The notes under the pieces were generated by a model that was not told the DNA's origin, did no database searches, and saw only the letters and a list, made by a program, of their open reading frames with translations. From contig OX638340.1 in NCBI GenBank assembly GCA_951812955.1, positions 2,432,001-2,496,000 of the forward strand: DNA of 64,000 bases. The letters are read 5' to 3'. Positions 1 through 51,430 of this stretch are shown piece after piece (the first letter of the stretch is position 1; each line of letters begins with the position of its first letter). A program made the translations under genes and the position numbers. Origin of the DNA: an uncultured Gemmatimonadota bacterium (GTDB lineage Bacteria > JAAXHH01).

Positions 1-1412
1 TCGACGAAGCGATAGTCCCTCCGGACCTCCCGTACCCACCATCCACCGCTGACCAGGTGTTCTGGGGGCGGACCGGGACCCGAAGGCGCCTGCCAGTGCA
101 CGGGCTGGCCTTCCAGGACGCGGGGACTGGCGTGGGCGCGCCGCACCAGGGAACGCACGGCGACGGGCCGGGGACTGGCCGCTGCGAGCTTGCCGAAGGG
201 CCGCCACGCGAAACGGGCCTCCGGCAGGTGCGCCGAGGCCAACCGGGCCGTGAGGACCGAATCGGGGCCGAACTCGGCGCGGACCCGCGCCAGGGCCCGC
301 ATGGCCGACCCGGTATCGCGGTCCGGATTCTCCTGCAGCAGGTTCAGTTTATCGGCGGTGACGCCCACGGCCTCCACCTCGAGGGCCAACTCCACCGGGG
401 GAAAGGGGAAGGAGACCGTTTCCAGATGCAGAACCACCAGCTCCAGCAGGATCTTCGCGTCCAGCGTCGGTTCGGCCGCCTGGACCCGGCAGCGGTGCCG
501 CGTTCCGTTCTCCTGCCGGAACGCCATCTGGAGGGCGGCGGCCGCCTGGTATCTTTCACCCGCGGCCTTCAGCAGGGGCGCCAGCAGTTGGGACACCCGG
601 AACAGGAGGCCCCGGGCATCGGACTCGTTATCGTCCAGTTCCATCCGGGCCTGGAGCGGTTCGGGAAGCGCCCGGGGCTGGAGGGGCAGGGGGCGGTCAC
701 CCGTCGCGAAGCGGTAGAGTTCCCTCGCCTGCTCGCCGAGATGCCGGGCGATACGCTCCCCGGGAAGCGCTAGGAAGTCCCCCACGGTATGCACGGCCAG
801 CTTGTCCAGCCGCTCCCGCAGTTTCGGCTCGAGTTGCAGGTGCACCAGCCCCACCTTGCGGTATTCGGCTTCCTCGGCTTCCACGGACGGGAGTACGATT
901 ACCCCGTTCCTCGCTCTGGCGACGGCATAGGCGCCGAAACGGCCGAAACCGACCACGACGCTCGCCGAAAACTCCAGCGCGGTGAGGGCGGCGTGCATCT
1001 GTCCGGCCCAGTCCTCCAGCGACACGTAGAGCCAGTCCAGCCCCCCCGCGTCCACCCAGAAGATCCCCGGTTCCTCCCCGCTCGGTTCCACCCGGGGGCT
1101 GAAGCGATCCAGCGCGCCGTGGACCTGCCGGACTGCGGCCCCGACCTCCTCCTCCGAAACCGTCCCGGCGCACAGGCAGCGATCCAGGGAGAGGGCCGCG
1201 GCGTACCGCATGCCCGGCCGGATCCCGCCCCGGACGGCCGCGTCGTTGAGCCACAGGATGGGGCTCAGGGGTTTTTCTTCCTCTACCACCACCACCGGTC
1301 TCTCCCGCCACTGCGGATGGCTCCGCAGCAGGAGCTGCAGCGGCAGCGCCCGAATGTTAATGCAGGCCGTCCGGCCCGCGGCAGATTTCGGTGTGGCGCC
1401 AGCCCGGTCCAT
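1..1412 (-). CDS. imuB: ImuB-like Y-family DNA polymerase (5' portion; ORF runs off the window start, so it is absent from the ORF track)
   Basis: Manual minus-strand translation from the ATG at 1412..1410 gives MDRAGATPKSAAGRTACINIRALPLQLLLRSHPQWRERPVVVVEEEKPLSPILWLNDAAVRGGIRPGMRYAAAALSLDRCLCAGTVSEEEVGAAVRQVHGALDRFSPRVEPSGEEPGIFWVDAGGLDWLYVSLEDWAGQMHAALTALEFSASVVVGFGRFGAYAVARARN... with no stop down to at least ~nt 800. The N-terminal pattern (LPLxxLL...VVVVEE...PILWLNDAA...GIRPGMRxAAA) matches ImuB proteins. It sits downstream of lexA-imuA and overlaps the imuA 3' end by ~55 nt. Confidence 0.6.
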   Translation of the reverse strand, partial: MDRAGATPKSAAGRTACINIRALPLQLLLRSHPQWRERPVVVVEEEKPLSPILWLNDAAVRGGIRPGMRYAAALSLDRCLCAGTVSEEEVGAAVRQVHGALDRFSPRVEPSGEEPGIFWVDAGGLDWLYVSLEDWAGQMHAALTALEFSASVVVGFGRFGAYAVARARNGVIVLPSVEAEEAEYRKVGLVHLQLEPKLRERLDKLAVHTVGDFLALPGERIARHLGEQARELYRFATGDRPLPLQPRALPEPLQARMELDDNESDARGLLFRVSQLLAPLLKAAGERYQAAAALQMAFRQENGTRHRCRVQAAEPTLDAKILLELVVLHLETVSFPFPPVELALEVEAVGVTADKLNLLQENPDRDTGSAMRALARVRAEFGPDSVLTARLASAHLPEARFAWRPFGKLAAASPRPVAVRSLVRRAHASPRVLEGQPVHWQAPSGPGPPPEHLVSGGWWVREVRRDYRFV

Positions 1413-1992
1413 GACGTCTGTCCTTCAGGATTTCGATTTCACATTGAAAACGGTCCACCGCCAGGCGGCGGCAGGAGGTCTGGCCCCTCAGGGTGACCAT
1501 CGGCCCCAGCGAAGGCGCCTCCCGGGATTTGGCGGTCAGGCACAGCAGGGCGGCGTGGTGGTCCCGCGCCTGCCGGGCCAGGCGCACCTGCAGCGGCACG
1601 GGGACCCTGGAATCGGCGTGCAGGTCCATCACCACCAGCCCGAATCCACCCGATCGCAGGACCCGGTCCCCCGCCCGCGCCGCGGCCCGGGCGTCCGGTA
1701 CGCGGATGACCACCAGGGCGTCCAAGTCCACGCCGCTCTCCGCCGCGTCCGGCGCGAAGAAGGTGTCCGGCGTTGCCGTGATCCAGGCCGCCGGCTCGCC
1801 CTCGAGCTGGGCGTCCAGCACCAGCCGGAAGGCGGCCGTCAGCAGGGCGGCCCCGGGGACGGACGAGAGCTCGCAGAGCCGCCCGGCCAGCTGGGCCCGC
1901 GACCAGCACGGCTGCTCCTCCCGTTTCTTGACGGGCATACGCGTGAAATAGGGATCGAGATCCTGCAGATCCCGATCCCGCGGGGACGACAT
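1357..1992 (-). CDS. imuA: ImuA-like (SulA/RecA-fold) protein of the SOS mutagenesis cassette
   Basis: 211-aa ORF starting 11 nt after the lexA stop on the same strand. Family call is based on position in a lexA-imuA-imuB arrangement and a RecA/SulA-like P-loop-less fold family pattern (…VVMDLHADSRVPVPLQVRLARQAR…). Not a strong sequence call. Confidence 0.5.
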   Translation of the reverse strand: MSSPRDRDLQDLDPYFTRMPVKKREEQPCWSRAQLAGRLCELSSVPGAALLTAAFRLVLDAQLEGEPAAWITATPDTFFAPDAAESGVDLDALVVIRVPDARAAARAGDRVLRSGGFGLVVMDLHADSRVPVPLQVRLARQARDHHAALLCLTAKSREAPSLGPMVTLRGQTSCRRLAVDRFQCEIEILKDRRHGPGWRHTEICRGPDGLH

Positions 1993-2003
1993 AGTGGTTC
2001 CTT

Positions 2004-2618
2004 TTACTCAACGCTCCGCCGCACCTCGATGACCTTACCCAACAGCGAAAAAGGCGCTCCGTCCTCCCGGGGGATGATCGGACTGAAGGCCTCGTTCTCC
2101 GGATGCAGCTCGACACGGCCGTCCCGCTCCCGGTACCGCTTGACCGTCGCCTCGTCGCCCACCAGGGCCACCACGATGTCCCCCGGACTGGCCGTTGCCT
2201 GCCGACGCACGATCACGATGTCCCCCGGCAGGATGCCGGCATGAAGCATGCTCTCCCCCTCCACGGCCAGCGCGAAGAGCTCATCGTCGTCGAAACGCGT
2301 CTGCACCATGATGTATTCCGGCGGATCCTCCATGGCCTCGGTCAGTTCGCCCGCCTGTACGCGCCCCAGCATGGCGATCAACTGGGGCGGACGGGCCTTG
2401 CCGAACTCCGGCAGCCGGTAACCCCGAGACCTTCCGTCCACCTTGGCGAGCTTCCCCTCGGACACCAGCTTCTCCAGGTGCTGGCGGGCGGACTGGACCG
2501 CCCGGAACCCGAAGGCGCGCTGCACGTCCCGGGTCGTGGGCGGGATCCCGCTTAAGATCCGTTCCCGCACGAAATCGTAGATCTTCTCCCTGGTCTTTCC
2601 AGATGGCGTGTAGGCCAT
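2004..2618 (-). CDS. lexA: LexA repressor (S24 peptidase)
   Basis: MAYTPSGKTREKIYDFVRERILSGIPPTTRDVQRAFGFRAVQSARQHLEKLVSEGKL is a winged-HTH N-domain. The C-domain has the Ser/Lys dyad context (GESMLHAGILPGDIVIV…VKRY). The ATG is at 2618..2616; the 240-aa track ORF is an upstream extension. Confidence 0.9.
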   Translation of the reverse strand: MAYTPSGKTREKIYDFVRERILSGIPPTTRDVQRAFGFRAVQSARQHLEKLVSEGKLAKVDGRSRGYRLPEFGKARPPQLIAMLGRVQAGELTEAMEDPPEYIMVQTRFDDDELFALAVEGESMLHAGILPGDIVIVRRQATASPGDIVVALVGDEATVKRYRERDGRVELHPENEAFSPIIPREDGAPFSLLGKVIEVRRSVE

Positions 2619-2757
2619 GATGGTCTCCTCGGGGCCGGGCCGGTGAAAGGGGTTGATGGAAAGGACCAGCGCAACGGAGAAAAGGGCCGGCGCGAAGGGC
2701 CGATGAAACGTGCCGGGGCGCACCAAAACGCATCAACGAGCGCCTGAAAACCCATAA

Positions 2758-2775
2758 AACAGACATTTGTCTGTT
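2758..2775. promoter_or_regulatory. Inverted repeat AACAGACA-TT-TGTCTGTT (ACAG-N8-CTGT) in the lexA / DUF4143-ATPase divergent promoter; candidate LexA operator
   Basis: 8-bp perfect arms separated by 2 nt. It lies ~140 nt upstream of the lexA ATG and ~120 nt upstream of the divergent 2897 gene. It contains CTGT/ACAG tetramers as in CTGT-N8-ACAG SOS boxes, but in the opposite arrangement. Confidence 0.4.
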
Positions 2776-2896
2776 ATGTCAAGCGGTTTTTAGGAAAATT
2801 GGGGATTGGGAACGGGTGAGAACCATTTCACTAACCGCAAGTTCTTTTCAAAATTACAGCTTGCTTATTGATACAATTAACGTTAAATATATTAAT

Positions 2897-4057
2897 ATGA
2901 TGGCAGATTTTTACATTCCTCAAGCGCAACTCACCACACTCGCCCACCTGGTTACACCGGGCAAAGTCGTTGTGGTATACGGACCCAGAAGGGTGGGCAA
3001 GACCACGCTGATCAAGCGTTACATGCGAGAACACGACCCCGACGCCCTGCTCGTAACGGGGGAGGACATCGTGGTCAGGGAGTACCTCGAGAGTCAGTCC
3101 CTGGCCAAATTGACGTCCTTCGTCGGCCGTCGCCGTACACTGATCATCGACGAAGCTCAGCATATCCGGCAAATCGGGCTGAATCTCAAGCTGATCGCCG
3201 ACCACGTCGAAGGGCTTAAGATCATCACCACAGGCTCGTCCTCCTTCGACCTGGCCAATCAGACTGGCGAGCCCCTGACCGGCCGCAAGTATACCCTGCT
3301 GCTTCTGCCACTGGCCCAGTTGGAACTCCAGGAAACCGAATCCGCGCACCAGACACGAGCCCATCTCGAACTTCGGATGATTTACGGGTCGTATCCCGAA
3401 GTCGTCCTCATGGAGTCAAACGAAGACCGGCAACTCTATATCAAGGAACTGATCGCTTCCTATCTATTCAGGGACATACTCCAGCTGGAGGGCATACGCC
3501 ATGCGGACAAGCTGCTCAGGCTGCTGCAACTGGTCGCCTTCCAGATCGGACGCGAGGTATCGACTTCCGAACTGGGCACCCAGTTGGGCATGAAAGCGAA
3601 CACCGTGGATCGATATCTAGACTTACTTGAGAAATCCTATATCCTATACAGCCGCCGCGGGTTCAGCCGCAATCTGCGTAAGGAAATAACCAAGAGCCGA
3701 CGGTATTACTTCTACGACAACGGCATCAGGAACGGGTTGATCAACAACTTCAACCCACTTGCAATGCGGGATGACGCGGGGGAGTTGTGGGAAAGCTACA
3801 TCCTGGTGGAACGATTGAAGCACAACCTCTACAACGGACACCTGGCGGAAAGCTACTTCTGGCGTACATACGATCGCCAGGAAATCGACCTAGTTGAGGA
3901 GTGGGGAGGTCAACTACTTGCCACGGAAATGAAATGGACCGCCAGATCACACCGGGCGCCCGGCGCCTGGCGCAAGGCCTATCCCGAAAGTTCGTTCCAG
4001 GTTGTTCATCCTGAAAACTATCTCAGTTTTATTTCTGAATCACCGGCCGCACCCTAA
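2897..4057 (+). CDS. AAA-superfamily ATPase with C-terminal DUF4143 domain (COG1373-like)
   Basis: Walker A GPRRVGKTT, Walker B LIIDEAQ. The C-terminal region is typical of the ATPase+DUF4143 family. The start is placed at MMADF (2897) after an AT-rich promoter-like stretch. Confidence 0.7.
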   Translation: MMADFYIPQAQLTTLAHLVTPGKVVVVYGPRRVGKTTLIKRYMREHDPDALLVTGEDIVVREYLESQSLAKLTSFVGRRRTLIIDEAQHIRQIGLNLKLIADHVEGLKIITTGSSSFDLANQTGEPLTGRKYTLLLLPLAQLELQETESAHQTRAHLELRMIYGSYPEVVLMESNEDRQLYIKELIASYLFRDILQLEGIRHADKLLRLLQLVAFQIGREVSTSELGTQLGMKANTVDRYLDLLEKSYILYSRRGFSRNLRKEITKSRRYYFYDNGIRNGLINNFNPLAMRDDAGELWESYILVERLKHNLYNGHLAESYFWRTYDRQEIDLVEEWGGQLLATEMKWTARSHRAPGAWRKAYPESSFQVVHPENYLSFISESPAAP

Positions 4058-4077
4058 ACGAACAACAGATCCTTCGT

Positions 4078-4557
4078 TCAACCGGTCTGCGCAATGACCG
4101 TTTCCGGCTCGTGATCGACCGCGAAGTTCACGGACCTGGCGATAAAGCACATGGCATGGGCTTTTTCGTGCAGGCGCTCCGCGGTTTCCGCATCCCTCTC
4201 CGCCGTTATCGTAACACGCGGCCTGAGGGTCACGCGTCCGAACTGGCCCGAGCCGTCCGGATTCAGTTCCATCACGCCTTCCGCCTGGTCTTCGTAGGCC
4301 GTCACCACGACTTTGTTCACCGTGCAAAGATGCAGATACCAGAGCATGTGGCAGGCCGAAAGAGAAGCCAGCAGCATGTCCTCCGGATTATGGCGGGCAG
4401 CGTCGCCCAGGTAGCCAGGATCCGCGGAACCCTTGAGAACCGGCTTGCCCTTGCATGCGATGTCGTAATCACGCGTATAGCCCCTGTACGTGCTCGAACC
4501 GTTGCCCAGATTGCCCTTCCACACAACACCGACCTCGTACGTATGCTGCTTGTTCAT
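4078..4557 (-). CDS. osmC: OsmC/Ohr-family peroxiredoxin-like protein
   Basis: 159 aa. Has OsmC-like conserved Cys pairs (…LSACHML…, …HAMCFIARS…) and the family's size. Confidence 0.75.
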   Translation of the reverse strand: MNKQHTYEVGVVWKGNLGNGSSTYRGYTRDYDIACKGKPVLKGSADPGYLGDAARHNPEDMLLASLSACHMLWYLHLCTVNKVVVTAYEDQAEGVMELNPDGSGQFGRVTLRPRVTITAERDAETAERLHEKAHAMCFIARSVNFAVDHEPETVIAQTG

Positions 4558-4597
4558 GATGCCTCCAGGTTTCTAGTCAATTACGGTGCCTGAACTT

Positions 4598-4620
4598 AAC
4601 TGATCGGTACACGATCAGTT
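4598..4620. promoter_or_regulatory. Inverted repeat AACTGATC-N7-GATCAGTT upstream of osmC
   Basis: Perfect 8-bp arms seen in the AT-rich intergenic region ~40 nt upstream of the osmC start. Could be an operator for an OhrR/MarR-type regulator. Confidence 0.3.
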
Positions 4621-4796
4621 TCAATCGTAGTAACTCACCTGGTGCCATGCAACAGGTTAAAACCTGTGGTGCATCCGGTAGCCTTAAGACCGGGTTGGAT
4701 GTAACGGACAGAAAATTGGAAGAAACTTCTTGTTTGGTCAGATAATTACTTTAATTTTCTGACAATAATTGATACTGAGCATATCGCATATCACGG

Positions 4797-5429
4797 GTGT
4801 TTTCAATGAGCAGTATGGCCGCTAAAATCATGCGTCGGGTGTCCGCTCATCCCACCGGAAAGTGGGTTTGTACACCGAAGGATTTCCTGGACTTCGGGAG
4901 CAGGGAGGCCATTGACCAGGCTCTGTCGCGCCTGGCCAGATCCGATCGGCTGCGGCGCATAGGCCACGGCCTCTATGACAGGCCCAGGTTCAGCAACGTA
5001 CTGAGACGTCCTGCGCCGGTTGATCTGGATGCTGCAGTTAGCGCACTGGCAAGGAGGGACGGCGTTCAGATCCTGCCGGATGGCATGGCCTCTGCGAATC
5101 AGTTGGGACTCACGAACGCCGTACCGGCCAAAGTCAGCTTCGTAACAGATGGCTACTCCAGGACACTTAAAATTGAAGGAAGGACGGTCCGTTTTCGACA
5201 TGCGAGCCCGAGCGTTATGAAATGGGCCGGAAGACCGTCAGCTTCGGTGGTTCAGGCGTTGCGATGGCTTGGTCCCGCCGCGGCCGAGGACGCACGGGTC
5301 CTGTCGACCTTGAGCCGAACCCTCTCGGAAGAAGTGAAGGTCGATTTATTAAGAAACATACGCGATCTGCCGGGATGGGTATTGCCGCTGTTGCGAGAAA
5401 TAACCACTGAACATCACGACGCAATATGA
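4797..5429 (+). CDS. abiEi: AbiEi-family antitoxin/transcriptional regulator (type IV TA)
   Basis: The N-terminal region (…AIDQALSRLARSDRLRRIGHGLYDRP…) resembles AbiEi wHTH antitoxins. It is followed 7 nt later by an AbiEii-like ORF. Confidence 0.55.
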   Translation: MFSMSSMAAKIMRRVSAHPTGKWVCTPKDFLDFGSREAIDQALSRLARSDRLRRIGHGLYDRPRFSNVLRRPAPVDLDAAVSALARRDGVQILPDGMASANQLGLTNAVPAKVSFVTDGYSRTLKIEGRTVRFRHASPSVMKWAGRPSASVVQALRWLGPAAAEDARVLSTLSRTLSEEVKVDLLRNIRDLPGWVLPLLREITTEHHDAI

Positions 5430-5436
5430 AAATGGA

Positions 5437-6174
5437 TTGCGTATCTTTCCTCTCCCTTCCTGTCCAGGACAGACGGGACCTCTTCGAGTCAGCGGCAAAC
5501 TGAAAACCGCACTTTCGAGACGAATCGACGAGATCGTCGAAGGAGGTCTTGTCATTCCAGATGAAAGCGACGTCGACGGCCAGACGCTTCTCGTGGAGTA
5601 CCCTACACTTTACCCTGGAGACAGTGTCGCCTACGTGGCGCCACGGGTACGAATCGAGGCAGGGGCGAGATCGGCGCTGGATCCCAACCTGACCCGTACC
5701 ATCAAACCATTCATCGCGGATGAGGTGCGAGACTTGTCTTTGGCAGTGGAAAACATCCGCGTTATCGCACCAGATCGCACGCTCTGGGAGAAGCTGTTGA
5801 TCCTGCATGGGTTGTACTGCGGATATCGGGACGCACAGCGTCTACCGGCAGACAGAGATCGGATATCCCGCCACTACTACGATGTTGCCATGATAACGGA
5901 GACCGAGTCCGGCAGGGCCGCTCTATCCAACCTTGAATTGATGGATTCAGTTCGTAAACACAACCTTATTGCGTTTCGACAGGCCTGGAAGAAGTTCGAA
6001 GAGGCCGTACCTGGACGGGTGAAACTGGTTCCTCAGTTGGAACTGCACATGCTGATCGAGCGGGACTATGAAGCCATGCAGGACATGATCCTGGGTGACG
6101 TCCCGAATTTCAGATGGATCGTGGACCAATTGATGCATGCCGAAGCCATTGTCAATGGAACTACGAGAAGTTAA
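5437..6174 (+). CDS. abiEii: AbiEii/AbiGii-family nucleotidyltransferase toxin (DUF1814), TTG start, possibly N-terminally degenerate
   Basis: …IRVIAPDRTLWEKLLILHG… and …RHYYDVAMI… are typical DUF1814 C-terminal motifs. The ORF begins with TTG. The canonical N-terminal GGTAL-type motif is not obvious (GKLKTAL instead). Confidence 0.55.
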   Translation: MRIFPLPSCPGQTGPLRVSGKLKTALSRRIDEIVEGGLVIPDESDVDGQTLLVEYPTLYPGDSVAYVAPRVRIEAGARSALDPNLTRTIKPFIADEVRDLSLAVENIRVIAPDRTLWEKLLILHGLYCGYRDAQRLPADRDRISRHYYDVAMITETESGRAALSNLELMDSVRKHNLIAFRQAWKKFEEAVPGRVKLVPQLELHMLIERDYEAMQDMILGDVPNFRWIVDQLMHAEAIVNGTTRS

Positions 6175-6298
6175 CGTTCATGAATGCCAGGACGGCAGCA
6201 CTATCTCTAATTACACGTCATGATACCTTGACGGTCGTGCTCGATTTCGACGTCAGACAACACGAAGATCAGTCGGACCAATATGAAGGAGCTCCAAC

Positions 6299-6916
6299 AT
6301 GGCAACCCGGCGAGAACTTGCCTTTCCCGTCGAATCTCAGGAAGCCGCTGAACTCGCAATCGAAGATGACCGCACCGGTATCATCCTCGATCCGCTTCGC
6401 TGGCGTCTCCTTGAGATCCTGGGAGCGGGAAAGTCGGTGACGGAGATTTCTGAAGCGCTTGATGTTACGGACGCCCGGGTGCTGTACCACGTGCAGAGAC
6501 TGGCACAGACGGGAGTCGTGCATCTGGAGGATGATGCGGCGGCAGATCCCCGGGAATGGCGGTGTCTGCCCGCGGCGGCAGTGATTAGCGTACAGGAGGA
6601 GCAGGAGGCGGGCAGGTCATCCGGGCAGGAGGACAGACAGGCACAAGTGGCCGTCCCGGAGGCAGTGGCCGGCCAGTTTAACCAGGCTTTTCGCGAAGCG
6701 GCGGAAGGGATGTACGGACCGTCCTTCCAGATGTCCGTCAACCACAACCGCGCGCGGCTGTCAGAAGCCCAGGCCGCCGAATTCAACCGTAGGCTGCTTG
6801 CGCTCATCGAAGAGTACTTCCCTCCCGGAAAAGGAGACCGGTCGGGCGTCAAGTACGGTTTCCACGGCGTGCTAACACCGATCGATCTTCATCCGCTTGG
6901 GGATGCCGAGGGATAG
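6299..6916 (+). CDS. ArsR-family HTH transcriptional regulator with C-terminal extension
   Basis: …ILDPLRWRLLEILGAGKSVTEISEALDVTDARVLYHVQRLAQTGVV… is an ArsR/SmtB-type HTH. At 205 aa it is longer than the minimal ArsR. Confidence 0.6.
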   Translation: MATRRELAFPVESQEAAELAIEDDRTGIILDPLRWRLLEILGAGKSVTEISEALDVTDARVLYHVQRLAQTGVVHLEDDAAADPREWRCLPAAAVISVQEEQEAGRSSGQEDRQAQVAVPEAVAGQFNQAFREAAEGMYGPSFQMSVNHNRARLSEAQAAEFNRRLLALIEEYFPPGKGDRSGVKYGFHGVLTPIDLHPLGDAEG

Positions 6917-6988
6917 GTGTTCGCGGATATCACGAACGTCATCCGCTCGGAGATGCCGGGGGATAGAGAGGTGGGTATACCATAAGCA

Positions 6989-7219
6989 TCACCGGGGTCC
7001 GCGACCATCACCGCGGCCTGAGACGACGGACCACAAGAAGACCGCCATACCTGCCAGCACAAGCACGGCCCCCAGGCAAAGGAACAAAGTCATCGAGACC
7101 GGATGGATCCAGAACAGGGTCGCCACTTCCACGACGAGGCCAACCGCAATCAACAAGCCCGCAATGTAAAGCCGGCCGGCGAATCCAGTTCGACCACCGG
7201 ACCGGAGGGATTCATGCAT
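6989..7219 (-). CDS. Small two-TM membrane protein (hypothetical), last gene of the cytochrome operon
   Basis: An ATG (MHESL…) lies 5 nt after the NrfH-like stop. It has two hydrophobic helices (LYIAGLLIAVGLVVEV…, LFLCLGAVLVLAGMAVFLW). Confidence 0.3.
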   Translation of the reverse strand: MHESLRSGGRTGFAGRLYIAGLLIAVGLVVEVATLFWIHPVSMTLFLCLGAVLVLAGMAVFLWSVVSGRGDGRGPR

Positions 7220-7224
7220 ATCGC

Positions 7225-7852
7225 TCACTCTCCCGCCGCCGGTTCCCATTTGCCAAAACGATCCAGCTTGTCCACCTCATGCACCAGGTTGTGGCACATC
7301 ACGCATGATCTGGTACCGTTGAGCATTTCTCGCAGATAGGGCCGGTGGTCCGGATGCTCCTCGTACGAGCGCGCGCCTGCGTGACATTCGAGGCAGGCCG
7401 TGTTTTCGTAGGGCTCGTACAGCGCGACGGGTTCGGACCACGTCCCCCAGACGTTGTGCCATACGTGCCGCACGCCCCGGATCTTGTCGTCCACGTCCCC
7501 GAACATCGTGTAGTCCGAATGGCAGACGTAGCAGGCATAGTCCGCGGGGATCCGCTTATTCTGGAAATGGGCGGCCGGCAGAAACCGGCCGTCGTCGATA
7601 TACAGGCTTTCCAGGAAGGGTTGGTTGACGTGGCAGGAGACGCAGAACTCGGTCGACTTGGCTTGCTCGTAGTGCTGCACGGTTCCCACCGAGCAGCGCC
7701 ACGCCGGGCAGCAGTAGAAACGTGAAGAACGCGAAGATCATGCCGCCGGCCGAGGCGGTAAGATCGGGCCGCCGCAGGACTACCGCGATCATGGCCAGCG
7801 TAATGGCCGCCAGGACGATCAGGGTGATGGTAAATCCGGTCATTCCGGCCAC
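7225..7852 (-). CDS. NapC/NirT/NrfH-family membrane tetraheme cytochrome c, split into two overlapping ORFs (probable frameshift near 7690-7705)
   Basis: ORF 7556..7852 encodes an N-terminal hydrophobic anchor (MTGFTITLIVLAAITLAMIAVVL…MIFAFFTFLLLPG). ORF 7225..7689 (GTG start, no signal peptide) has four CxxCH motifs (CVSCH, CYVCH, CLECH, CVMCH) in 150 aa. Family members are a single polypeptide of TM helix plus tetraheme domain. Confidence 0.6.
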
Positions 7853-8106
7853 TCAGTTCGACTCCTGTCCCCGGTCGCTATGGCTGCTTCGGTCGGCTCT
7901 ATTGTTCAGGCCGCCGACACTGCTCCGGCCACTTACTCCGCCGAACCGCGCCGGCCGGCTTCCTCACGAAGGTCCCGGGAGAGCGCCCTGATCTCGGCCA
8001 GGTCCTGCACCATCTCGCTCCAGCCGTACCACAGCGCATAGTCGGGATTGTTATGGAAGGTCCCCTGGAATGCCCGCATGCGATGTTCCAGGTGCATCCT
8101 GAAGAG

Positions 8107-9315
8107 TCACTGTTCGATCCTCGAAGGCGCGTCGTGAAACGCCAGCAGGTCGGGATAGTCGTATGCGTAATGTTCCGGCCGGACCAGTACCCCGTCCCGG
8201 TACAGCGCGGAGACGATGCGGATGGCCTCGGCCAGGAGGCGGTCGGTCTCGCGGATCATCTCATCGCCCTTTGCGAGTTCCGCCCGCACGAGGTTTTCCG
8301 AATGGCACTGCTCGCAGATGCCGGTCATGCGGTCGCGCTCCCGCTGCCAGTCCTCCTGGGTCAGCCGGGCCACGTCGGCCTGCCTGACCACATCCAGTCG
8401 CGGGGTGGGGTTGCCGTCCGGGTCCAGCACGCCAAGTGCCTGGAGGATCGTTGCCCGGTCCTCCGCCCACTGCGGGTCTTCCGGCATGGGAAGTCGGACG
8501 GCCAGGAAACCCCAGGCGGTCCGGACGCCGTGATCTCCCTCGGGCATGTGGCAGGTCTGGCACGTAGGCGCCTGGGCATGCTCGGGCAGCGTGCCGTTCT
8601 GCTTGAGCAGATGCCGCACGCCATGCTTGGAGGACGAGTACATTTCCCACTGGGGATGATCGAACCCCATGTGGCACGTCCTGCACGCCTGGGGCTCCCG
8701 GGCCTCCTTCACAGAAAAGAGATGGCGGGTATGACATACGTCGCAGGACGACAGGCCGAAAAGCCCGTCCTGCGCCTTGATCGTCTTAATCTCCTCTTCG
8801 CTCTTGAGGCCGATGCGGTGGCATCCGCCGCAGCCCTTCATACCCTCAGTCAGGGCCATGGGCAGGAAGTGGGTCGTCGGCATGGCGTTCATGCTGGTCC
8901 AGGCAAGGGCGTGCTTGCCCCCCGCGAACTGTTCCACCTGGATCGGATGGCACGTGGCGCACACGTCCGGGGTCGCGACGCCGGCCAGGGCCACGTCCTC
9001 CTCCGTGCGGTGATCGCCGCCGTGACACATGACGCAGTCCACGCCGTTCGTGCTGTGGGTGCTGAGTTCCCAGTCAATTACGATGCCGGGCGTGGCATCC
9101 TGGTGGCAGGCCACGCAGTCGGACGTGGCCCGCGGTGGATCGGCGGAGGGACCGCAGGCGGCAAGGGACAGCAGGAAGAATGATACGATGAAGAAGGATA
9201 CGATGTTGTTAACAAGGATGGCACGGCATACGCGGTACCTGGTTTTAGCAAGGAAGCGACTCCTGGAAAGCAGAGACGTCAGACTACCGGATTGCCGGGC
9301 CATCTTGTACCTCAT
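8107..9315 (-). CDS. Octaheme c-type cytochrome lipoprotein (HAO/ONR/OTR-like multiheme family)
   Basis: Lipoprotein-type signal (…FFLLSLAACG). Eight CxxCH motifs (CVACH, CVMCH, CATCH, CGGCH, CDVCH, CRTCH, CQTCH, CEQCH) within ~340 residues. It sits immediately upstream of the NrfH-like quinol-dehydrogenase-type gene. Confidence 0.8.
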   Translation of the reverse strand: MRYKMARQSGSLTSLLSRSRFLAKTRYRVCRAILVNNIVSFFIVSFFLLSLAACGPSADPPRATSDCVACHQDATPGIVIDWELSTHSTNGVDCVMCHGGDHRTEEDVALAGVATPDVCATCHPIQVEQFAGGKHALAWTSMNAMPTTHFLPMALTEGMKGCGGCHRIGLKSEEEIKTIKAQDGLFGLSSCDVCHTRHLFSVKEAREPQACRTCHMGFDHPQWEMYSSSKHGVRHLLKQNGTLPEHAQAPTCQTCHMPEGDHGVRTAWGFLAVRLPMPEDPQWAEDRATILQALGVLDPDGNPTPRLDVVRQADVARLTQEDWQRERDRMTGICEQCHSENLVRAELAKGDEMIRETDRLLAEAIRIVSALYRDGVLVRPEHYAYDYPDLLAFHDAPSRIEQ

Positions 9316-9321
9316 GGAAGG

Positions 9322-9723
9322 TCACTGCCGGTTTTCAACGGCTTTCCGCCGCACCTCTTCACTCACCAGAACATCCGCGATGATTGCCACGATGTAGAAC
9401 TTGCCTTCCAACAGGTGCTCGTTGCTGAAAATGGGTTCCAGTTTTATCCATCTTCGAAGGTTCAGGTTCCCCCGGACCGTGTTGTATATAATGTCGTAAA
9501 ACTTCTGCGTGTCGTCAAACACCCAGGCTTCCGTGAAAATGATCCAGAACCCGATTTCTTCGGGAATGCCGTCCCAGTCGTTTGCCACCGCCCAGTTAAT
9601 CTCGATCGCCGGGTCGCTGTCGTACTTTATGGACTTCGATTCCGTGCCCATGACGATGCGGATTTGCAGATCCATATCGTTGATCTGGTTGAGCACGCCG
9701 TTCACGTCCTCGATAATTGCCAT
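9322..9723 (-). CDS. Hypothetical protein (acidic, AT-richer codon usage), first gene of the octaheme cytochrome operon
   Basis: 133-aa ORF ending 7 nt before the octaheme cytochrome start. Its GC is visibly lower than its neighbours. No recognisable motifs. Confidence 0.4.
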   Translation of the reverse strand: MAIIEDVNGVLNQINDMDLQIRIVMGTESKSIKYDSDPAIEINWAVANDWDGIPEEIGFWIIFTEAWVFDDTQKFYDIIYNTVRGNLNLRRWIKLEPIFSNEHLLEGKFYIVAIIADVLVSEEVRRKAVENRQ

Positions 9724-9880
9724 GTGCGCTCCTGGTGATGCGCTGGTTGTTGAATTGAATTCCAGTTGAAACCGAAGGTCGTTCGGACCCCGTAATCCTT
9801 TACTGCCGGCCTTGCAATCTAAAAAGTAAATCAGGTTGAGCAGAACCGGAAGGTAAACCGAAAGTTCGGATCCTCATCCA

Positions 9881-10495
9881 TCATGGCCCCTCCCAGGGCC
9901 GTATCCTCGGAAACCAGCGCGGCACGTTCGCCTTGTACAACCGGTAGGGTTCACCGAACCGGCGCTCGAGGCCCGGCTCCTCGTAGAACGGGAAGTAGAT
10001 CGCGCACACAACGAAGAACACGCACATCCAGGCCGCAAGGTGCCATGAGCCGAAGAGCAGGGCTTCGGCGCCGAGTATGAGCACCATACCCGAATTCATG
10101 GGGTTGCGCACGTGGCGATAAGGTCCGAGGACGACCAGCTTCTCGGGCGGAGCCCAGGGCGCTGGCGTGCCCTTCCCGACCCTGTCGAACAGCGCCATGG
10201 TCCAGGCGGCAAGGAACAGGCCGTCCACCGCCATCGCGACCCCGATCCAGAACCGGAACTGCGCGGGTTCCGCCGGTGACAGCGCGCCCGGCGAGTCTGA
10301 CGATATCCACAGTATCACGCCCGGAACGTAGACCGTAGCAGCTGCCGGAAGGAGAAGGACGGTCTTCGCAGTAGTCCATTTCACGCGGGACACCCCCTCG
10401 CACGGTCCATAGTGTCCATTTCGTACATTGGCGATTATTCCATTCGGCCGCTCAGCGACACCCATGACGAAGGGATAAAAACCGGTCCATGTCAA
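9881..10495 (-). CDS. Isoprenylcysteine carboxyl methyltransferase (ICMT)/phospholipid methyltransferase-family membrane protein
   Basis: The C-terminal motif …LVVLGPYRHVRNPMNSGMVL…EEPGLERRFGEPYRLYKANVPRWFP is the ICMT/PEMT signature. The true start is probably the internal GTG (VKWTTAKTVLLL…). Confidence 0.7.
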   Translation of the reverse strand: MTWTGFYPFVMGVAERPNGIIANVRNGHYGPCEGVSRVKWTTAKTVLLLPAAATVYVPGVILWISSDSPGALSPAEPAQFRFWIGVAMAVDGLFLAAWTMALFDRVGKGTPAPWAPPEKLVVLGPYRHVRNPMNSGMVLILGAEALLFGSWHLAAWMCVFFVVCAIYFPFYEEPGLERRFGEPYRLYKANVPRWFPRIRPWEGP

Positions 10496-10595
10496 GCGTT
10501 AGTAATTAAGTGACAAATCCCCCGGCCGGGACAAATGCGACAATTATATTGCACACGTTTGTTGTTCGTTATACTATACGAAATTCGAAACGATA

Positions 10596-10641
10596 TTTGA
10601 ACGAACCTATGAACTTGAACCCTGCGATTTGAACTGGAACC
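10596..10641. promoter_or_regulatory. Array of direct repeats TTGAAC(N0-2)GAACC x3 in the ICMT/M48 divergent promoter
   Basis: tttgaacgaacc / tgaacttgaacc / ttgaactggaacc read directly from the sequence, ~150 nt upstream of the M48 start at 10792. Confidence 0.3.
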
Positions 10642-10791
10642 TTGAGAATCCGCCGCGGATCTGTAGGGTCACTGCCAGGACCGGTAACCGCTTCGGTACG
10701 GATACGCGACAATCCCGCAGAATCGGACGGCGGATGCGGGACCGCGCCTTAACGGCCAAACCCGTTCCGACACACAGCCGGAGGATAAAGA

Positions 10792-11733
10792 ATGCATGGC
10801 GCCGAGAACGATATTCCATTTGAAGGCGAGGGGACTCATACAGGCGGGCCGGACCGGGCTGTTGACGATACGATCCGGCTGAACTGGCGCGAGAAGCTGG
10901 TTGAAGTCGGCCTGATGATGGTAATGTTCACGTGCGGTATGCTGATCGGAATGTTCGTCATCATAGCTTCTCTGCTTACCATGCGAAGTACATTCGAGCA
11001 GTTGGCCCCGGGATTCATGGAAGTAGGTTCGATTCCGCTCATCATTCTGGTCGTCGTGGCCGTGATCGTCGGGAATATCTGTTCGTTCAGCTGCGCTCCC
11101 TACCTCATACGTCTCTTCTTTCGGGGCTACGAGTTGAAGGACGAGCGGATCGACCGCGCTTTGGATCACCTGATTTCCGTGACCGGGATGGAAATCAGGG
11201 CCGAACGGATCTACGCCATAAAGGGCAGGACGGCCAACGCCGTCGTGGCCGGCCTCTTCCGGAAGGGTCAGTACATCTTCTTTACCAACAGGCTTCTGGA
11301 GAGAATGAGAGAAGGAGAGATCATGGCGATCCTGGCGCACGAACTGGCCCATGTGCGGCACCGGCACATGCCGAGGATGATGCTGGGCATCGTGCTATGG
11401 ACCCTCGGCATCCAGGTATTCTTCTGGCTGATTGGCTTCCAGGTTTACTTCGAATCGATCGAAGAATCCTGGAAAATGTGGGTGTATGGCGGAATAAATG
11501 CCTTGAACTTCTACCTGCTTGTTTTCCTCGTTCTGTTCCCGCAGTCGAGGCGTCACGAATACGAGGCGGATGAGGCCGCCGCCCGGTGGGTGGGCATAAG
11601 CCAGTACAAGCAGGCCCTTTACCGGTTGCATCAATTGAATGACCAACTGAAACCACCGAGGAAGATCCTGTCGAAGCTAAGTACCCATCCGACGCTTCAG
11701 CAGAGGCTGGAGCGGGTGGGGAATCTGGAATAA
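10792..11733 (+). CDS. M48-family (Ste24/HtpX-type) zinc metalloprotease, copy A
   Basis: Two N-terminal TM helices, then HELAHVRHRH (HExxH), two more TM helices, and a downstream EYEADE third zinc ligand. ~55% identical over its length to the 16245..17192 protein. Confidence 0.8.
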   Translation: MHGAENDIPFEGEGTHTGGPDRAVDDTIRLNWREKLVEVGLMMVMFTCGMLIGMFVIIASLLTMRSTFEQLAPGFMEVGSIPLIILVVVAVIVGNICSFSCAPYLIRLFFRGYELKDERIDRALDHLISVTGMEIRAERIYAIKGRTANAVVAGLFRKGQYIFFTNRLLERMREGEIMAILAHELAHVRHRHMPRMMLGIVLWTLGIQVFFWLIGFQVYFESIEESWKMWVYGGINALNFYLLVFLVLFPQSRRHEYEADEAAARWVGISQYKQALYRLHQLNDQLKPPRKILSKLSTHPTLQQRLERVGNLE

Positions 11734-16244: not shown

Positions 16245-17192
16245 CTATTGCGCGTCCAACCTTGACACGCGGTCGAGACGGTTCTGCATCGTGGGGTGGG
16301 TCAGAAGTACTCTAACAAATCTCGGTGGTGGCTTTAAATTGTCATTGACTTGATGAAGACGGTAGAGCGCCCGTTTGTATTGCTCCGTGCCCACCCATTT
16401 TGCCGCCGTAGCATCTGCTTCGTATTCGTTACGCCTCGATAGCGGGTAAATGACCAGAAACATGAGAAGCCACACGTTCACGGCATTTAAAAGCCCGTAC
16501 GTCCACATTTTAAAAGACTCATCCATTGCATCGACATATGCACTGAAATCTAGCAGATACAGGAAAGCCTGCATCCCGCAGACCCACATAAATGTAGCCA
16601 ACTGCATCTTGGGAAGATGCCTGTGACGAACATGGGCCAATTCGTGGGCGAATATTGCCAAAATCTCCTCTTCGTTCGCTTTCGCCAGAAGTTTGTCCGT
16701 AAAGAAGATGTACCTGTTTTTGCGGAAAAGCCCAGTTACCATCGCGTTGGCAGTCCTGCTCTTGATGGTGTACAGGGTTTCTGCCGCAATGTTCATATCG
16801 ACGGACGATATCAGCTTCCCGACTGACCGATCCAGGCGATCGTCCCGTAACTCGTATCCACGGAAGATGAGACGTATCAGATATGGAGAACACAACCATG
16901 CACAGGCGTTCCCTACGGTTGCCGACAGGATGACCAGCAACACAATCGTTAAGGAACCTTGGTCCAATAGACCCGGAACTCCCTGAACAATCATGTCATC
17001 CGCGGTTAACAGAATGCTTAAGAACACGAATACCGCGATCAATATGCCCACCAGGGTCACACTCATGTTCAACCCGATTTCGACCAGTCTGTCGCGCCAG
17101 GTCAACCGGATTGGTTCATCTTTAATCGATGAAGCGCCGCCGGCTACTTCATTTATACGGTGTGTAGGTTCGACCATTATTTCCTTCTTCAA
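16245..17192 (-). CDS. M48-family (Ste24/HtpX-type) zinc metalloprotease, copy B
   Basis: HELAHVRHRH and NEYEAD motifs. Same topology as copy A and clearly paralogous to it (RLTWRDRLVEIGL…PYLIRLIFRGYELRDDRLDR…). Confidence 0.8.
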   Translation of the reverse strand: MKKEIMVEPTHRINEVAGGASSIKDEPIRLTWRDRLVEIGLNMSVTLVGILIAVFVFLSILLTADDMIVQGVPGLLDQGSLTIVLLVILSATVGNACAWLCSPYLIRLIFRGYELRDDRLDRSVGKLISSVDMNIAAETLYTIKSRTANAMVTGLFRKNRYIFFTDKLLAKANEEEILAIFAHELAHVRHRHLPKMQLATFMWVCGMQAFLYLLDFSAYVDAMDESFKMWTYGLLNAVNVWLLMFLVIYPLSRRNEYEADATAAKWVGTEQYKRALYRLHQVNDNLKPPPRFVRVLLTHPTMQNRLDRVSRLDAQ

Positions 17193-46576: not shown

Positions 46577-47374
46577 TTACCCGATTACCGTGCCCTGTCC
46601 ACGCAGCGCAGCCGTGACGGGTCCGGGTATCCTCCCGTCGCCCAGGATCACCTTTCCCACCCCGACTTCCAGCGCCTCTTTCGCGCCGAGCAGCTTCTTC
46701 TTCATGCGGTCCCGGGCGTGGGTCGCGATCGCCTCGTCTATGTCCTCACGGGCGAGGCGGGGGATCAGCGTGTCTTCGTCCTCGGCGTCCTCGAGGAATC
46801 CAGGCGTGTTGGAAAGGATGACCAGCCTGTCCGCCCCGAGGGCGTCGGCGATCACGGCGGCCGCCCGGTCGCCGTCCACGTTGATGATCTCCCCCTCGTA
46901 GCTGATGGCCGGCGGCGTGATGACCGGCAGGTAACCCTGGTCCAGCAATGAGGTCAGCAGCGGTACGTTCGCCTTCTCGACCCGGCCTGTGTAATCGTTT
47001 CTCAGGACCTTCTTCCGGCCGTCCTCCACGATCCGGAGGGTGGGTTTCCGCCTGCCCTCGAGGAGGCGACCGTCGACCCCGCTCAGTCCTACGGCGTTGG
47101 CGCCGAGCTGCTGCAGTTTCTCCACGATGCGCTTGTTTCGCTTGCCGCAATACACCATGTTGAAGATATCCAGCGTCTCCGGATCGGTATATCGGCTCGT
47201 GTACCCGGAGGGCGACGTGACCATGCGGGGCGGCTTGCCCAGTTGTGTCGATACGGTGTTCAATTCGTCGGAACCGCCGTGCACCAGCACCAGCGGTTCG
47301 GTCTGCCGCGCGATGTCCTCCAGTACGTAGTCCAGGTTGATGCCCCTGCTGCCTCCGGTCTTCACCACGATCAT
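46577..47374 (-). CDS. lysZ: Short amino-acid-kinase-family carboxylate kinase, [LysW]-aminoadipate/glutamate kinase (LysZ/ArgB)
   Basis: MIVVKTGGSRG… begins the AAK fold. At 265 aa it is the short archaeal/Thermus-type kinase. Its start overlaps the hisS stop by 4 nt. Confidence 0.7.
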   Translation of the reverse strand: MIVVKTGGSRGINLDYVLEDIARQTEPLVLVHGGSDELNTVSTQLGKPPRMVTSPSGYTSRYTDPETLDIFNMVYCGKRNKRIVEKLQQLGANAVGLSGVDGRLLEGRRKPTLRIVEDGRKKVLRNDYTGRVEKANVPLLTSLLDQGYLPVITPPAISYEGEIINVDGDRAAAVIADALGADRLVILSNTPGFLEDAEDEDTLIPRLAREDIDEAIATHARDRMKKKLLGAKEALEVGVGKVILGDGRIPGPVTAALRGQGTVIG

Positions 47375-48636
47375 GCCGTGCCGCCTCCCTTAACCGCGTC
47401 CAGCACCTCCCACCTGGGAAGGGCCGTCTGCGTACTGTCCGCCATGCGCCGTACCATGACGACGCCGTTTTTCACCTCTTCTTCGCCGATGATCAGGGTG
47501 TATGCGGCACCGATCCGGTCGGCCTGCTTCATCTGGGCCTTCAGGCTGCGGTCCTCCCACAGGGCCGCCGCGCCCACGCCGGCCGAGCGAAGTTCCTGTG
47601 CCAGGACCACGGCGGCGTCCTTGGCCTCGGCGCCGAGATAGGCAACGAACACGGCAGGTTTCGGCACTTCCGGGGGTTCGATCCCCTCCTGCTTCATCGT
47701 GAGGATGATGCGCTCTATGCCCGACGCGAAGCCGATAGCCGGCGTTTCGGGTCCGCCCACCATTCCGATCAGTCCGTCGTACCGCCCGCCCCCGCACACC
47801 GCGTTCTGCGCGCCGATGCCCTCTGCCCAGACCTCGAACACCGTCTTCGTATAGTAGTCGAGTCCCCGCACCATGCGGTGGTTGACCTCGTAAGGGCGGC
47901 CCAGGGCGTCCAGGTACGACCTCAGCTGGACGAAGTGGTCATTGCATGCACCGCACAGGGATTTCGCGATCCGCGGCGCCCCCTCCGCTATCTTCCCGCA
48001 GGATTCCCGCTTGCAATCCAGAAGCCGCAGCGGGTTCTCGCCATAGCGGCGCCGGCAATCATCGCAGATCCCGTCCAGGTGCTGTTCGTACCAAGCCTTC
48101 AGCGTAGCGATGTATCCAGGCCGGCAAGCGGGACACCCCGTACTGTTCACCTGGAAGGACAGCCCCTTGATGCCGACGGCTTCGTAGATCTGCCAGGCGA
48201 CCTGCATCACCTCGAGGTCGATGGCCGGGTCCTGGCTGCCCAGTACCTCCACGTCGACCTGGTAGAACTGGCGGTATCTTCCCGCCTGCGGACGTTCGTA
48301 CCGGAAAGCCGGACCGATCGTATAGAGTCTCAGGGGCTGGGGCCTGCCATGGAGCTTGCGCTCGGCGTAGGCTCGGCAGATCCCCGCCGTGAATTCGGGC
48401 CGCAGCGTCATGCGCTCGTCACTCCGGTCGCGGAAGGTGTACATCTCCTTCTCCACGATGTCCGTGGTCTCGCCGACGCCCCGCTCGAAGAGGCCGGTCT
48501 GCTCGAAGACGGGCACGTCGATCCGCTCGTAGCCGTACAGTTCGCAGACCTGCCGGGTCATCTCGGTCACGAACCGCCAGTAGGCCTGGTCCTCCGGCAG
48601 GATGTCGTAGGTGCCTCTCGGTGCCTGGAATTTCAT
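47371..48636 (-). CDS. hisS: Histidine--tRNA ligase
   Basis: MKFQAPRGTYDILPEDQAYWRFVTE… class II aaRS motifs. Embedded between lysY and lysZ on the same strand. Confidence 0.85.
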   Translation of the reverse strand: MKFQAPRGTYDILPEDQAYWRFVTEMTRQVCELYGYERIDVPVFEQTGLFERGVGETTDIVEKEMYTFRDRSDERMTLRPEFTAGICRAYAERKLHGRPQPLRLYTIGPAFRYERPQAGRYRQFYQVDVEVLGSQDPAIDLEVMQVAWQIYEAVGIKGLSFQVNSTGCPACRPGYIATLKAWYEQHLDGICDDCRRRYGENPLRLLDCKRESCGKIAEGAPRIAKSLCGACNDHFVQLRSYLDALGRPYEVNHRMVRGLDYYTKTVFEVWAEGIGAQNAVCGGGRYDGLIGMVGGPETPAIGFASGIERIILTMKQEGIEPPEVPKPAVFVAYLGAEAKDAAVVLAQELRSAGVGAAALWEDRSLKAQMKQADRIGAAYTLIIGEEEVKNGVVMVRRMADSTQTALPRWEVLDAVKGGGTA

Positions 48637-48668
48637 TTTGGTCTTCCTATACCGGTCTATACCGGTTC

Positions 48669-49712: not shown

Positions 49713-50548
49713 GATCGGGCCACCTTTACCAGGTAGTCTATGATGCGCCCGGGAATGTCCACACCCGTTGGCCGGACGCTGTTACGGAATTCCATGGTGT
49801 AGTTCACCTCGTTGACCAGGATCCCCTCGGGAGATTCAAGCAGGTCGACCGCCACCACGCCGCCGCCCACCGCTTCCGCCGCGCGGGAGGACAGCGTCCC
49901 CACGTCCCCGTCGATGGGACAGTCCGCGGTCGTTCCCCCCAGGGCTGTGTTGGTCTTCCAGTGATCCGAATAGCGGTAGACGGCGCAGATGGTTTCGCCG
50001 TCGACCACGAAGGACCGGATATCCCGCCCGGGCTTCTCCACGTACTCCTGGATATAGAACACGGAGTGGTGATAGGACCCCAGGACCTCCTTGTGCTCCA
50101 GCACCGCTTCCGCCGCGTGGCGGTCGTTGATGCGGGCGATCAGCCGTCCCCACGATCCGATGGGCGGCTTGAGTACGACGGGGTAACCCATGGTTTCCAT
50201 CACCTCCAGCGCCGCTTCCGCCGTGAAGGCCACGCGCGCCTTCGGCGTCGGTACGCCGTGATCCACCAGCGCCATGGTCGTCAGGAACTTGTTCCCGCAC
50301 ACGCGGGCCACGTCGTAGGTGTTAACCGTCCTGATACCGCTGGCGTTCAGCATCTTGAGCGAGTAGAGCGCCCTGGAGTGGTTGACGCACCGCTCCAGGA
50401 TGACGTCGTGGTCGTACCGGTGGTTCTCCAGGTCGAAGATGATGCGCCGGTCGTCCATCCGGTCGAAGGCGACGCCCCGTTTCGCAGCCGCCTCGAAGAG
50501 CATCTTCTGTTCCGTGGATACAATGGAAAGTAGCATGCCGATCTTCAC
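49709..50548 (-). CDS. lysX: RimK/LysX-family ATP-grasp ligase (LysX or ArgX), paralog 2
   Basis: GTG at 50548..50546 overlapping the upstream stop (GTGA); alternatively the ATG at 50536. [26 protein letters not shown]… ATP-grasp RimK-like motifs. The 510-aa track ORF is an upstream extension. Confidence 0.7.
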
Positions 50549-51399: not shown

Positions 51400-51430
51400 G
51401 GTTCCCGCACCTTCTTCCTGGTCATGCCAT

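Follow-up and report, generated by a model that had tools for sequence, protein, structure and literature searches.

A probable quinol-dependent HAO-family reductase operon carrying a premature stop codon and a frameshift in an uncultured Gemmatimonadota bacterium

Background

The octaheme cytochromes c of the HAO (hydroxylamine oxidoreductase) family include oxidative enzymes with a tyrosine-heme cross-link and relatives from which the cross-link tyrosine is missing; the cross-link-less HAOs that have been characterized are reductases without appreciable oxidative activity (PMC8042395). Here we analyze a locus of the latter sort in a 64,000 nucleotide stretch of DNA from an uncultured Gemmatimonadota bacterium (assembly GCA_951812955.1, contig OX638340.1, positions 2,432,001 to 2,496,000; the whole of this stretch is called "the window", and coordinates without a locus label refer to it). 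In it a gene for an octaheme cytochrome c (haoA-like) is followed by genes for a tetraheme cytochrome c of the NapC/NrfH superfamily (haoC/cycB-like) and a small membrane protein. The system is already known in kind, being a reductive HAO or epsilon-Hao-type module with variant features; both of its cytochrome genes are interrupted in this genome, where they are probably a pair of pseudogenes.

The epsilon-Hao system of the Campylobacterota (Haase et al. 2017 Mol Microbiol 105:127) also has an HAO octaheme without the cross-link Tyr. As summarized in PMC8042395, four epsilon-Hao proteins act as reductases of nitrite and hydroxylamine, with negligible oxidative activity; the product in vitro is ammonium. 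Its quinol-derived electrons are proposed to pass through a NapC/NrfH-superfamily tetraheme, Hanson et al. 2013 having suggested that HaoA and a NapC/NrfH/cM552 tetraheme form a quinol-oxidizing "reverse HURM" (HURM, hydroxylamine-ubiquinone redox module; PMC3701875). The genes for the two partners, NAMH_0559 and haoA (NAMH_1280), do not adjoin in N. profundicola (PMC3701875), whereas here they do and a small membrane protein gene stands third. Compared by description, the system at hand differs further in that its octaheme is a lipoprotein, its tetraheme has two transmembrane (TM) helices and its host phyla are others; in addition, a Met that is conserved before a Trp in epsilon-Hao, according to a second-hand and tentatively read statement in PMC8940962, is Phe here.

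Kustc0458/Kustc0457 of Kuenenia stuttgartiensis (HAOr; structure 6h5l), in which Kustc0458 is a reductase of nitrite to NO (PMC8042395), gives the best profile and fold match to the window octaheme and has in common with it the lack of a Tyr cross-link, the eight hemes and an Asp-His pair, but the two are only about 24% identical, Kustc0458 has a soluble diheme cytochrome for a partner where a membrane tetraheme is found here, and that system is located in the anammoxosome. The HAO of N. europaea (NeHAO; 1fgj, 4fas), which operates with c554 and cM552 in the HURM, belongs to the same octaheme family and likewise has a NapC/NrfH-related membrane tetraheme, but it has the Tyr-heme cross-link (P460), is oxidative and exceeds the window octaheme by about 90 residues; haoB and cycA, both found in the hao cluster of ammonia oxidizers, are missing here. 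NrfHA (2j7a) too joins a membrane tetraheme quinol dehydrogenase to a periplasmic multiheme reductase, but there the catalytic subunit, a pentaheme, has a CxxCK motif, and the window tetraheme falls under the NrfH cutoff and lacks the CxxCHxM Met. IhOCC of Ignicoccus hospitalis (4qo5) is another HAO-family octaheme, but is archaeal and more distant; to our knowledge it has neither a Tyr cross-link nor an adjacent NrfH-like partner. In the literature searched we did not find a description of the adjacent genes, the third small subunit, the two-helix anchor or the lipoprotein octaheme.

The two cytochrome genes are interrupted

Four reading frames stand in a row on the minus strand of the window between positions 6989 and 9723. 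The features of this region are as follows (loci labelled L001 to L087, here and below, are fetched genomic stretches that carry relatives of window genes):

9322..9723, minus strand: orf133, encoding a 133 amino acid (AA) acidic, cytoplasmic-type protein of an orphan family, 6 nt 5' of the octaheme start
7933..9315, minus strand: HAO-family octaheme cytochrome c gene (haoA-like), encoding a lipoprotein; a full frame of 460 codons with a premature stop inside it
8107..8109, minus strand: in-frame TGA in place of CGA, which turns Arg403 into a premature stop, with loss of 57 C-terminal residues
7225..7852, minus strand: gene for a tetraheme cytochrome c of the NapC/NrfH superfamily (haoC/cycB-like), divided by a +1 frameshift; two helices make up the membrane anchor
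7685..7687, minus strand: GGG run with the extra G (the frameshift site), as compared with L001 and L087
6989..7249, minus strand: gene for a small 2-TM membrane protein of 76-86 AAs, the third module gene, intact here

The locus is probably a three-gene operon preceded by a lineage-specific orphan open reading frame (ORF). Scans of positions 6700..10100 found one promoter-like site (mean of 0.8 in shuffled sequence) and five terminator-like sites (2.4 in shuffled sequence), and gave no operon boundary.

An earlier note on this DNA, made from the letters of the sequence, had described a 402 AA lipoprotein with eight CxxCH motifs. The eight motifs (at residues 67, 94, 119, 162, 191, 211, 252 and 334 of the ORF 9315..8107) are present, as is a lipobox, LSLAAC/G, that is kept in the closest relatives, but the length of 402 AAs is the result of truncation by an in-frame TGA. 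Beyond this TGA (8109..8107) another 57 codons (MHLEHRMRAFQGTFHNNPDYALWYGWSEM...) continue in frame until a TAA is reached at 7935..7933. More than 7000 homologues were found in a database with the read-through sequence as query; the best of them (P0001, 456 AAs) has 95% identity to it and covers 99% of the frame. When 16 sequences are aligned, the column of the TGA is Arg or Lys in all 15 homologues (IEQ[RK]LF), and about 30 of the 57 positions after it are invariant. The DNA at this point reads CAG TGA CTC in the window, CAG CGA CTC in L001 and CAG CGG CTT in L003, and the change polarizes to the window branch, as R399*. In a model of an intact orthologue the lost tail forms two long helices (residues 395-455, with pLDDT, the predicted local distance difference test score, of 83-98).

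The tetraheme gene is split by a frameshift. Its heme domain (7689..7225, 154 AAs) has a GTG start, four CxxCH motifs and no membrane segment, and both TM helices sit in another frame (7852..7556). There is a single extra G near position 7687, where the window has GGTGGGAACC and both L001 and L087 have GGTGGAACC; it is the only coding-region indel that is not a multiple of three in the 4.28 kb alignment to L001. Deletion of one G restores a 208 AA tetraheme which is 95% identical to the L001 protein and aligns without gaps with 17 homologues, all of them with two TM helices and four CxxCH motifs. The earlier identification of a NapC/NrfH-family tetraheme membrane cytochrome is correct at the level of the superfamily, the heme domain scoring 34.8 bits against Pfam PF03264 NapC/NirT (cutoff 24.1) and the four motifs and the N-terminal anchor being there (the latter in the repaired protein and the 17 homologues), but the protein is not encoded by one ORF, its anchor and heme domain being in different frames. 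It lies far under the NrfH, NapC and TorC equivalog cutoffs (29.5 bits against a cutoff of 134.2 for NrfH TIGR03153), its profile reaches no better than E = 0.11 with the NrfH structure 2j7a_C, and its first heme motif, C[LV]SCH[VI]x, is without the methionine of the NrfH-type CxxCHxM. Two helices form the hairpin of the anchor, and the positive charge of its loop (RRP) fits a heme domain on the periplasmic side.

The tiny 2-TM protein of the earlier note is borne out by ORF 7249..6989, which overlaps the 3' end of the tetraheme gene. Such an ORF lies downstream of the tetraheme gene in 37 of 40 syntenic loci (44-94% identity by tblastn), and alignment of the homologues shows a conserved membrane Glu and a W-x-H-P periplasmic loop; no Pfam domain was found in it across 42 homologue clusters. 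The C-terminus of the window protein is identical to that of L087. A suspected 19 bp lesion at the 3' end of this ORF proved to be a 19 bp tandem duplication in L087 (GGTCGCGGACCCCGGTGAT, L087 4737..4755) just 3' of the stop codon, of which the window has no copy, and the protein is unaffected.

Intact, interrupted and deleted forms of the operon

The closest relative found, L087, is a 149 kb metagenome contig with 96.6-99.3% nucleotide identity over about 7 kb aligned (window 1839..9757), and its four genes are intact (133, 456, 208 and 86 AAs). L086, a 3.9 Mb contig with 83-96% nucleotide identity in the aligned flanks, has cleanly deleted window positions 7019..9319, and with them both cytochrome genes and most of the small ORF; orf133, the ArsR-like gene and the flanking export genes are kept (L086 3865..4525 against window 6939..9859). 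L086 is also without the PEMT gene (window 9860..10765). With L001 and L085 as outgroups, the octaheme has four conservative signal-peptide changes on the window branch besides the stop, and the tetraheme has A109V besides the frameshift; the nonsynonymous (N) and synonymous (S) counts for the octaheme are 5N/13S in the window and 3N/13S in its intact sister L087. An operon that is intact, point-inactivated and deleted within one lineage makes a small, clean case of the ongoing loss of a respiratory module.

What the earlier note had not noticed is that the module, with a nonsense codon in the octaheme and a frameshift in the tetraheme, is not intact in this genome. To judge from the sequences, the octaheme and tetraheme genes are probably genuine pseudogenes in this genome, and it is most likely that the lesions are biological, not sequencing errors, and that the pseudogene pair is very recent. 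The position of the stop and the extra G inside one 2 kb functional unit counts toward real decay, as does the absence of 304 bp of L087 5661..6713 from the nearby AbiEii toxin gene (window 5437..6174, plus strand). Other facts speak against it: both lesions are read from one assembly of this genome, the extra G falls in a G run, which is a classic site of sequencing error, and relaxed selection on the window branch finds no support in an excess of nonsynonymous change. The lack of such an excess rules out a long-standing pseudogenization, and so the stop and the frameshift are either very recent or artefacts. In the latter case the module would be intact and functional, and the stop and the extra G would be errors of sequencing or assembly; we consider this unlikely, if far from negligible. 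The place of the extra G in a short G homopolymer, the absence (lesions aside) of any window-specific residue change in the mature octaheme and the presence of only one in the tetraheme, and dN/dS-like counts like those of intact relatives all fit such errors. On the other hand, the C to T substitution that creates the stop is not a typical assembly error, the two lesions lie together in one short functional unit next to a gene that has a deletion of its own, the related genome L086 has lost the same genes altogether, and long housekeeping ORFs run without interruption over at least 13 kb of the window; aconitase (967 AAs), GyrA, GyrB, DnaA, HisRS and GAPDH are all full length, which makes a generally error-ridden assembly unlikely. 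A further idea is recoding of the in-frame TGA, whether through selenocysteine or read-through, such that a full-length octaheme is still produced. It agrees with the perfectly preserved frame after the TGA and with the fact that UGA followed by C is a weak termination context. We nevertheless rejected it as very improbable: the homologues have Arg or Lys in this column and never Cys or Sec, no SECIS (selenocysteine insertion sequence)-like fold was found 3' of the TGA (z = -0.45), an Rfam scan of the whole window matched no RNA family, TGA is the ordinary stop codon of the flanking orf133 and tetraheme genes too, and the frameshifted tetraheme would stay unrescued. A tRNA scan of the window likewise gave no match.

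The octaheme is a member of the HAO family

The octaheme scores 82.8 bits against Pfam PF13447 (cutoff 21.9). In a search of its family profile against all PDB sequences, the matches at E <= 1e-25 are all HAO-family (HAO, hydrazine dehydrogenase (HDH), HAO-like proteins and IhOCC), and include the following:

Kustc0458 (6h5l): E = 1.5e-37, the best match
N. europaea HAO (4fas): E = 1.9e-33
K. stuttgartiensis HAO (4n4j): E = 2.8e-32
Hydrazine dehydrogenase (6hif): E = 1.3e-27
IhOCC (4qo5): E = 1.2e-25

There is one more, marginal match, to 6lod (E = 0.009), and the structures of ONR, OTR and MccA have no sequence match at E <= 0.01. A Foldseek search of the PDB with an AlphaFold2 model of the intact, 95% identical orthologue placed HAO-family structures at ranks 1-11, all with probability 1.00 and with 6h5l first (the fold E-value of IhOCC is 7e-6); the model is poor in the heme core (mean pLDDT 65) and TM-scores are only about 0.3. 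NrfA and TvNiR matched the fold only at E > 1, the latter over about 130 columns, and OTR is not among the 50 fold matches listed. Behind the sixth heme motif comes the active-site Asp-His pair, with CHMGFDHPQWEMY aligned to CHSGVDHNNWEAY of NeHAO and CHMGPDHPDAESY of Kustc0458 (CHMGFDH of the octaheme stands opposite CHSGVDH of NeHAO); D219 is invariant and H220 nearly so in the 16-sequence alignment. Having eight motifs in the family order, the profile similarity, the fold and this pair, the octaheme belongs specifically to the HAO family.

Profile alignment of the active site, a check of the kind that the earlier note had proposed, put an invariant Leu428 opposite the cross-link Tyr of NeHAO (GGWTYTEGW; HVNPGGWTYTEGW) with both hmmsearch and hhalign, or Trp429 under another gap placement, and the residue at this position is Leu or Trp in all 56 sequences. 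That the octaheme has no Tyr-heme cross-link is thus well supported as a prediction; it lacks the tyrosine that marks the oxidative HAO and HDH enzymes, scores 84.4 bits against a cutoff of 900 for the NCBIfam hydrazine dehydrogenase equivalog, and as an HAO-family protein without the cross-link Tyr resembles epsilon-Hao and the reductive HAOs. The earlier note had placed it more broadly, among epsilon-Hao, ONR and OTR types, and had named an OmcA/MtrC-like electron shuttle as the contrary case. Of these the HAO-family assignment stands, since both sequence and fold matches are to this catalytic type. ONR (TvNiR type) is rejected, all eight motifs being CxxCH with no CxxCK among them, in addition to the missing PDB sequence match and the TvNiR fold E-value above 1; OTR is rejected because no Shewanella OTR chain appears in the sequence matches at E <= 0.01 or in the 50 fold matches listed. 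The pairing of the octaheme with a NapC/NrfH-superfamily tetraheme, to which the note had drawn attention, is the architecture that has been proposed for epsilon-Hao and the reverse HURM (PMC3701875).

Distribution of the module

Relatives are encoded by at least 573 loci in a scan that took one genome per species. The best 80 loci are in metagenome-assembled genomes (MAGs) labelled Latescibacterota, Gemmatimonadota, Acidobacteriota (Vicinamibacterales, Bryobacterales and Terriglobia), Poribacteria, Zixibacteria and others. About 40 of the fetched loci, in MAGs labelled Acidobacteriota, Gemmatimonadota and Latescibacterota, have the genes in the order octaheme, tetraheme, small ORF, and the remainder have only an octaheme. 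The partnered octahemes form one clade in a neighbour-joining tree, apart from the partner-less ones, and in the alignment the lipobox is present in the clade A octahemes and missing from the clade B sequences. The 38 loci within L041..L084 (for example L042 5073..6332) have solitary sister-group octahemes, 61-72% identical to the window protein, with an ordinary signal peptide and without a lipobox, and neither a tetraheme nor a small-ORF partner lies within 2.5 kb of them. In L085 the module has LRR/Big_2 repeat proteins on both sides (206..1534 and 5993..6779). Repeat proteins of this type are characteristic of symbionts that live with a host (a sponge, for example), and the names of several related MAGs resemble those of sponge-metagenome bins.

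Cross-link-less HAO-like genes are counted as "hao" in many metagenomic surveys of the nitrogen cycle, and in one study of a microbial mat they were among the most abundant nitrogen genes (PMC8940962). The presence of such a gene is no guarantee of function; a marker-gene pipeline would score "hao present" in this genome, in which both cytochrome genes are broken.

Proposed function

We think it fairly probable that the operon encodes a membrane-bound, quinol-dependent HAO-family reductase, present in this genome as a pseudogene pair. Leu or Trp at the position of the cross-link Tyr makes a reductive role the most likely one, by analogy as a quinol-dependent reductase of nitrite, hydroxylamine or NO of the epsilon-Hao or reverse-HURM type. 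Where the operon is intact (L087 and L001), a two-helix hairpin, probably packed against the small 2-TM protein, would hold the tetraheme in the membrane, and the tetraheme would take electrons from quinol; these would run through the tetraheme hemes to the lipid-anchored periplasmic octaheme, whose fourth heme (CGGCH; five-coordinate and His-ligated in HAO-family structures) would reduce a small nitrogen oxide in the periplasm. The likeliest substrates would be nitrite and/or hydroxylamine, or NO, and the product ammonium or NO. In this genome the stop at Arg403 would remove 57 invariant-rich residues, and the extra G would uncouple the tetraheme anchor from the heme domain.

Not everything favors a quinol-dependent reductase of nitrogen oxides. 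The clade contains no characterized enzyme, and the octaheme is only about 20-24% identical to the solved HAOs, so the catalytic direction, substrate, product and role of the small subunit are extrapolated from characterized relatives at that distance. No nitrogen-cycle gene was found among about 30 genes scanned in the 64 kb window, and two invariant tyrosines, Tyr426 and Tyr430, stand at -2 and +2 of the aligned cross-link position. These tyrosines, together with an architecture of HAO octaheme and NapC/NrfH/cM552-type tetraheme like that of the ammonia oxidizers (PMC3701875), would suit an oxidative, forward HURM in which hydroxylamine (for example from neighbouring ammonia oxidizers) is oxidized and electrons pass by way of the tetraheme to the quinone pool. 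This is improbable in view of the Leu or Trp at the cross-link position itself in every sequence, the absence of appreciable oxidative activity in the cross-link-less HAOs that have been tested (PMC8042395) and the lack of a c554-like or haoB-like gene beside the module. A shade less probable still is that the substrate is not a nitrogen compound (sulfite or tetrathionate, for instance) or that the module merely transfers electrons. Multiheme enzymes are promiscuous in vitro and the locus has no linked nitrogen-cycle genes, but there is no sequence match to the OTR or MccA structures, the fold matches to NrfA and ONR are at E > 1, the HAO-type Asp-His pair is conserved, and neither a CxxCK nor an extra Cys-rich motif is present.

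Returning to a reductive role, it is a tentative thought, in our estimation rather doubtful, that the module clade is a distinct three-subunit quinol:N-oxide oxidoreductase, widespread in MAGs labelled Acidobacteriota, Gemmatimonadota and Latescibacterota, with a role perhaps unlike respiratory nitrite ammonification; it may serve to detoxify hydroxylamine or NO that comes from neighbouring ammonia oxidizers, and would be dispensable enough for one lineage to show it in all three states. As the octahemes of a defined sub-clade are accompanied by a membrane tetraheme and a small membrane protein, there is a concrete complex to express and test. These findings would not surprise a specialist.

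orf133 and other neighbouring genes

The earlier note had pointed out, upstream of the module, an AT-richer gene for a 133 AA acidic protein of no recognizable family. orf133 (9723..9322) is indeed such an orphan, with a pI of 4.5 and a GC content of 0.51 against 0.61-0.64 in its neighbours, but its GC content at third codon positions, 0.74, is host-like, which argues against a foreign "low-GC" origin; the low overall value is due to an amino acid composition rich in Ile, Asn, Asp and Glu. The changes in it are mostly synonymous, so it is a real gene. Its family has 14 clusters among 5.8 billion proteins, an exhaustive profile search gave one 50%-identity cluster, and no domain, confident structure or meaningful fold match was found for it. 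It is present only in the nearest relatives (L001, L002, L005, L006, L085, L086 and L087), and in L007 and L008 it is absent 5' of the module, the neighbouring PEMT gene being kept. Because of this restriction, and because it survives in L086 without the cytochrome genes, we take orf133 for a neighbour and not a functional component of the module; it is perhaps co-transcribed with the octaheme gene.

On the other side of the operon, and convergent with it, is a gene for an ArsR/HTH_20-type regulator (6299..6916, plus strand), conserved beside the operon in close relatives. Relative to L087 it has a 66 bp in-frame deletion (205 against 227 AAs) and 14N/10S differences, a high nonsynonymous share. 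The AbiEii gene nearby is part of an AbiEi/AbiEii pair (DUF6088 and AbiEii); its ORF is 245 AAs here and 350 AAs in L087, it covers Pfam positions 51-237 only, and its deletion, no more than 4 kb away from the module, adds a third lesion. A gene for an AAA ATPase (413 AAs, 2816..4057) is present in the window and missing from both L087 and L086 (window 2829..4039), and the OsmC gene (4078..4557) is found in L087 and not in L086; genes have been gained and lost repeatedly in this small hotspot, the stretch 2.8-6.3 kb of the window. Upstream of the operon there are two paralogous M48 peptidase genes (10792..11733, plus strand, 313 AAs, and 16245..17192, minus strand, 315 AAs), between which stand a MacB/FtsX, HlyD and ABC export cluster and a DUF7790 gene. 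Farther away dnaA, gyrB, gyrA and the HisRS gene are clustered at 47371..61542, all full length, which indicates that the window adjoins the region of the chromosomal replication origin.

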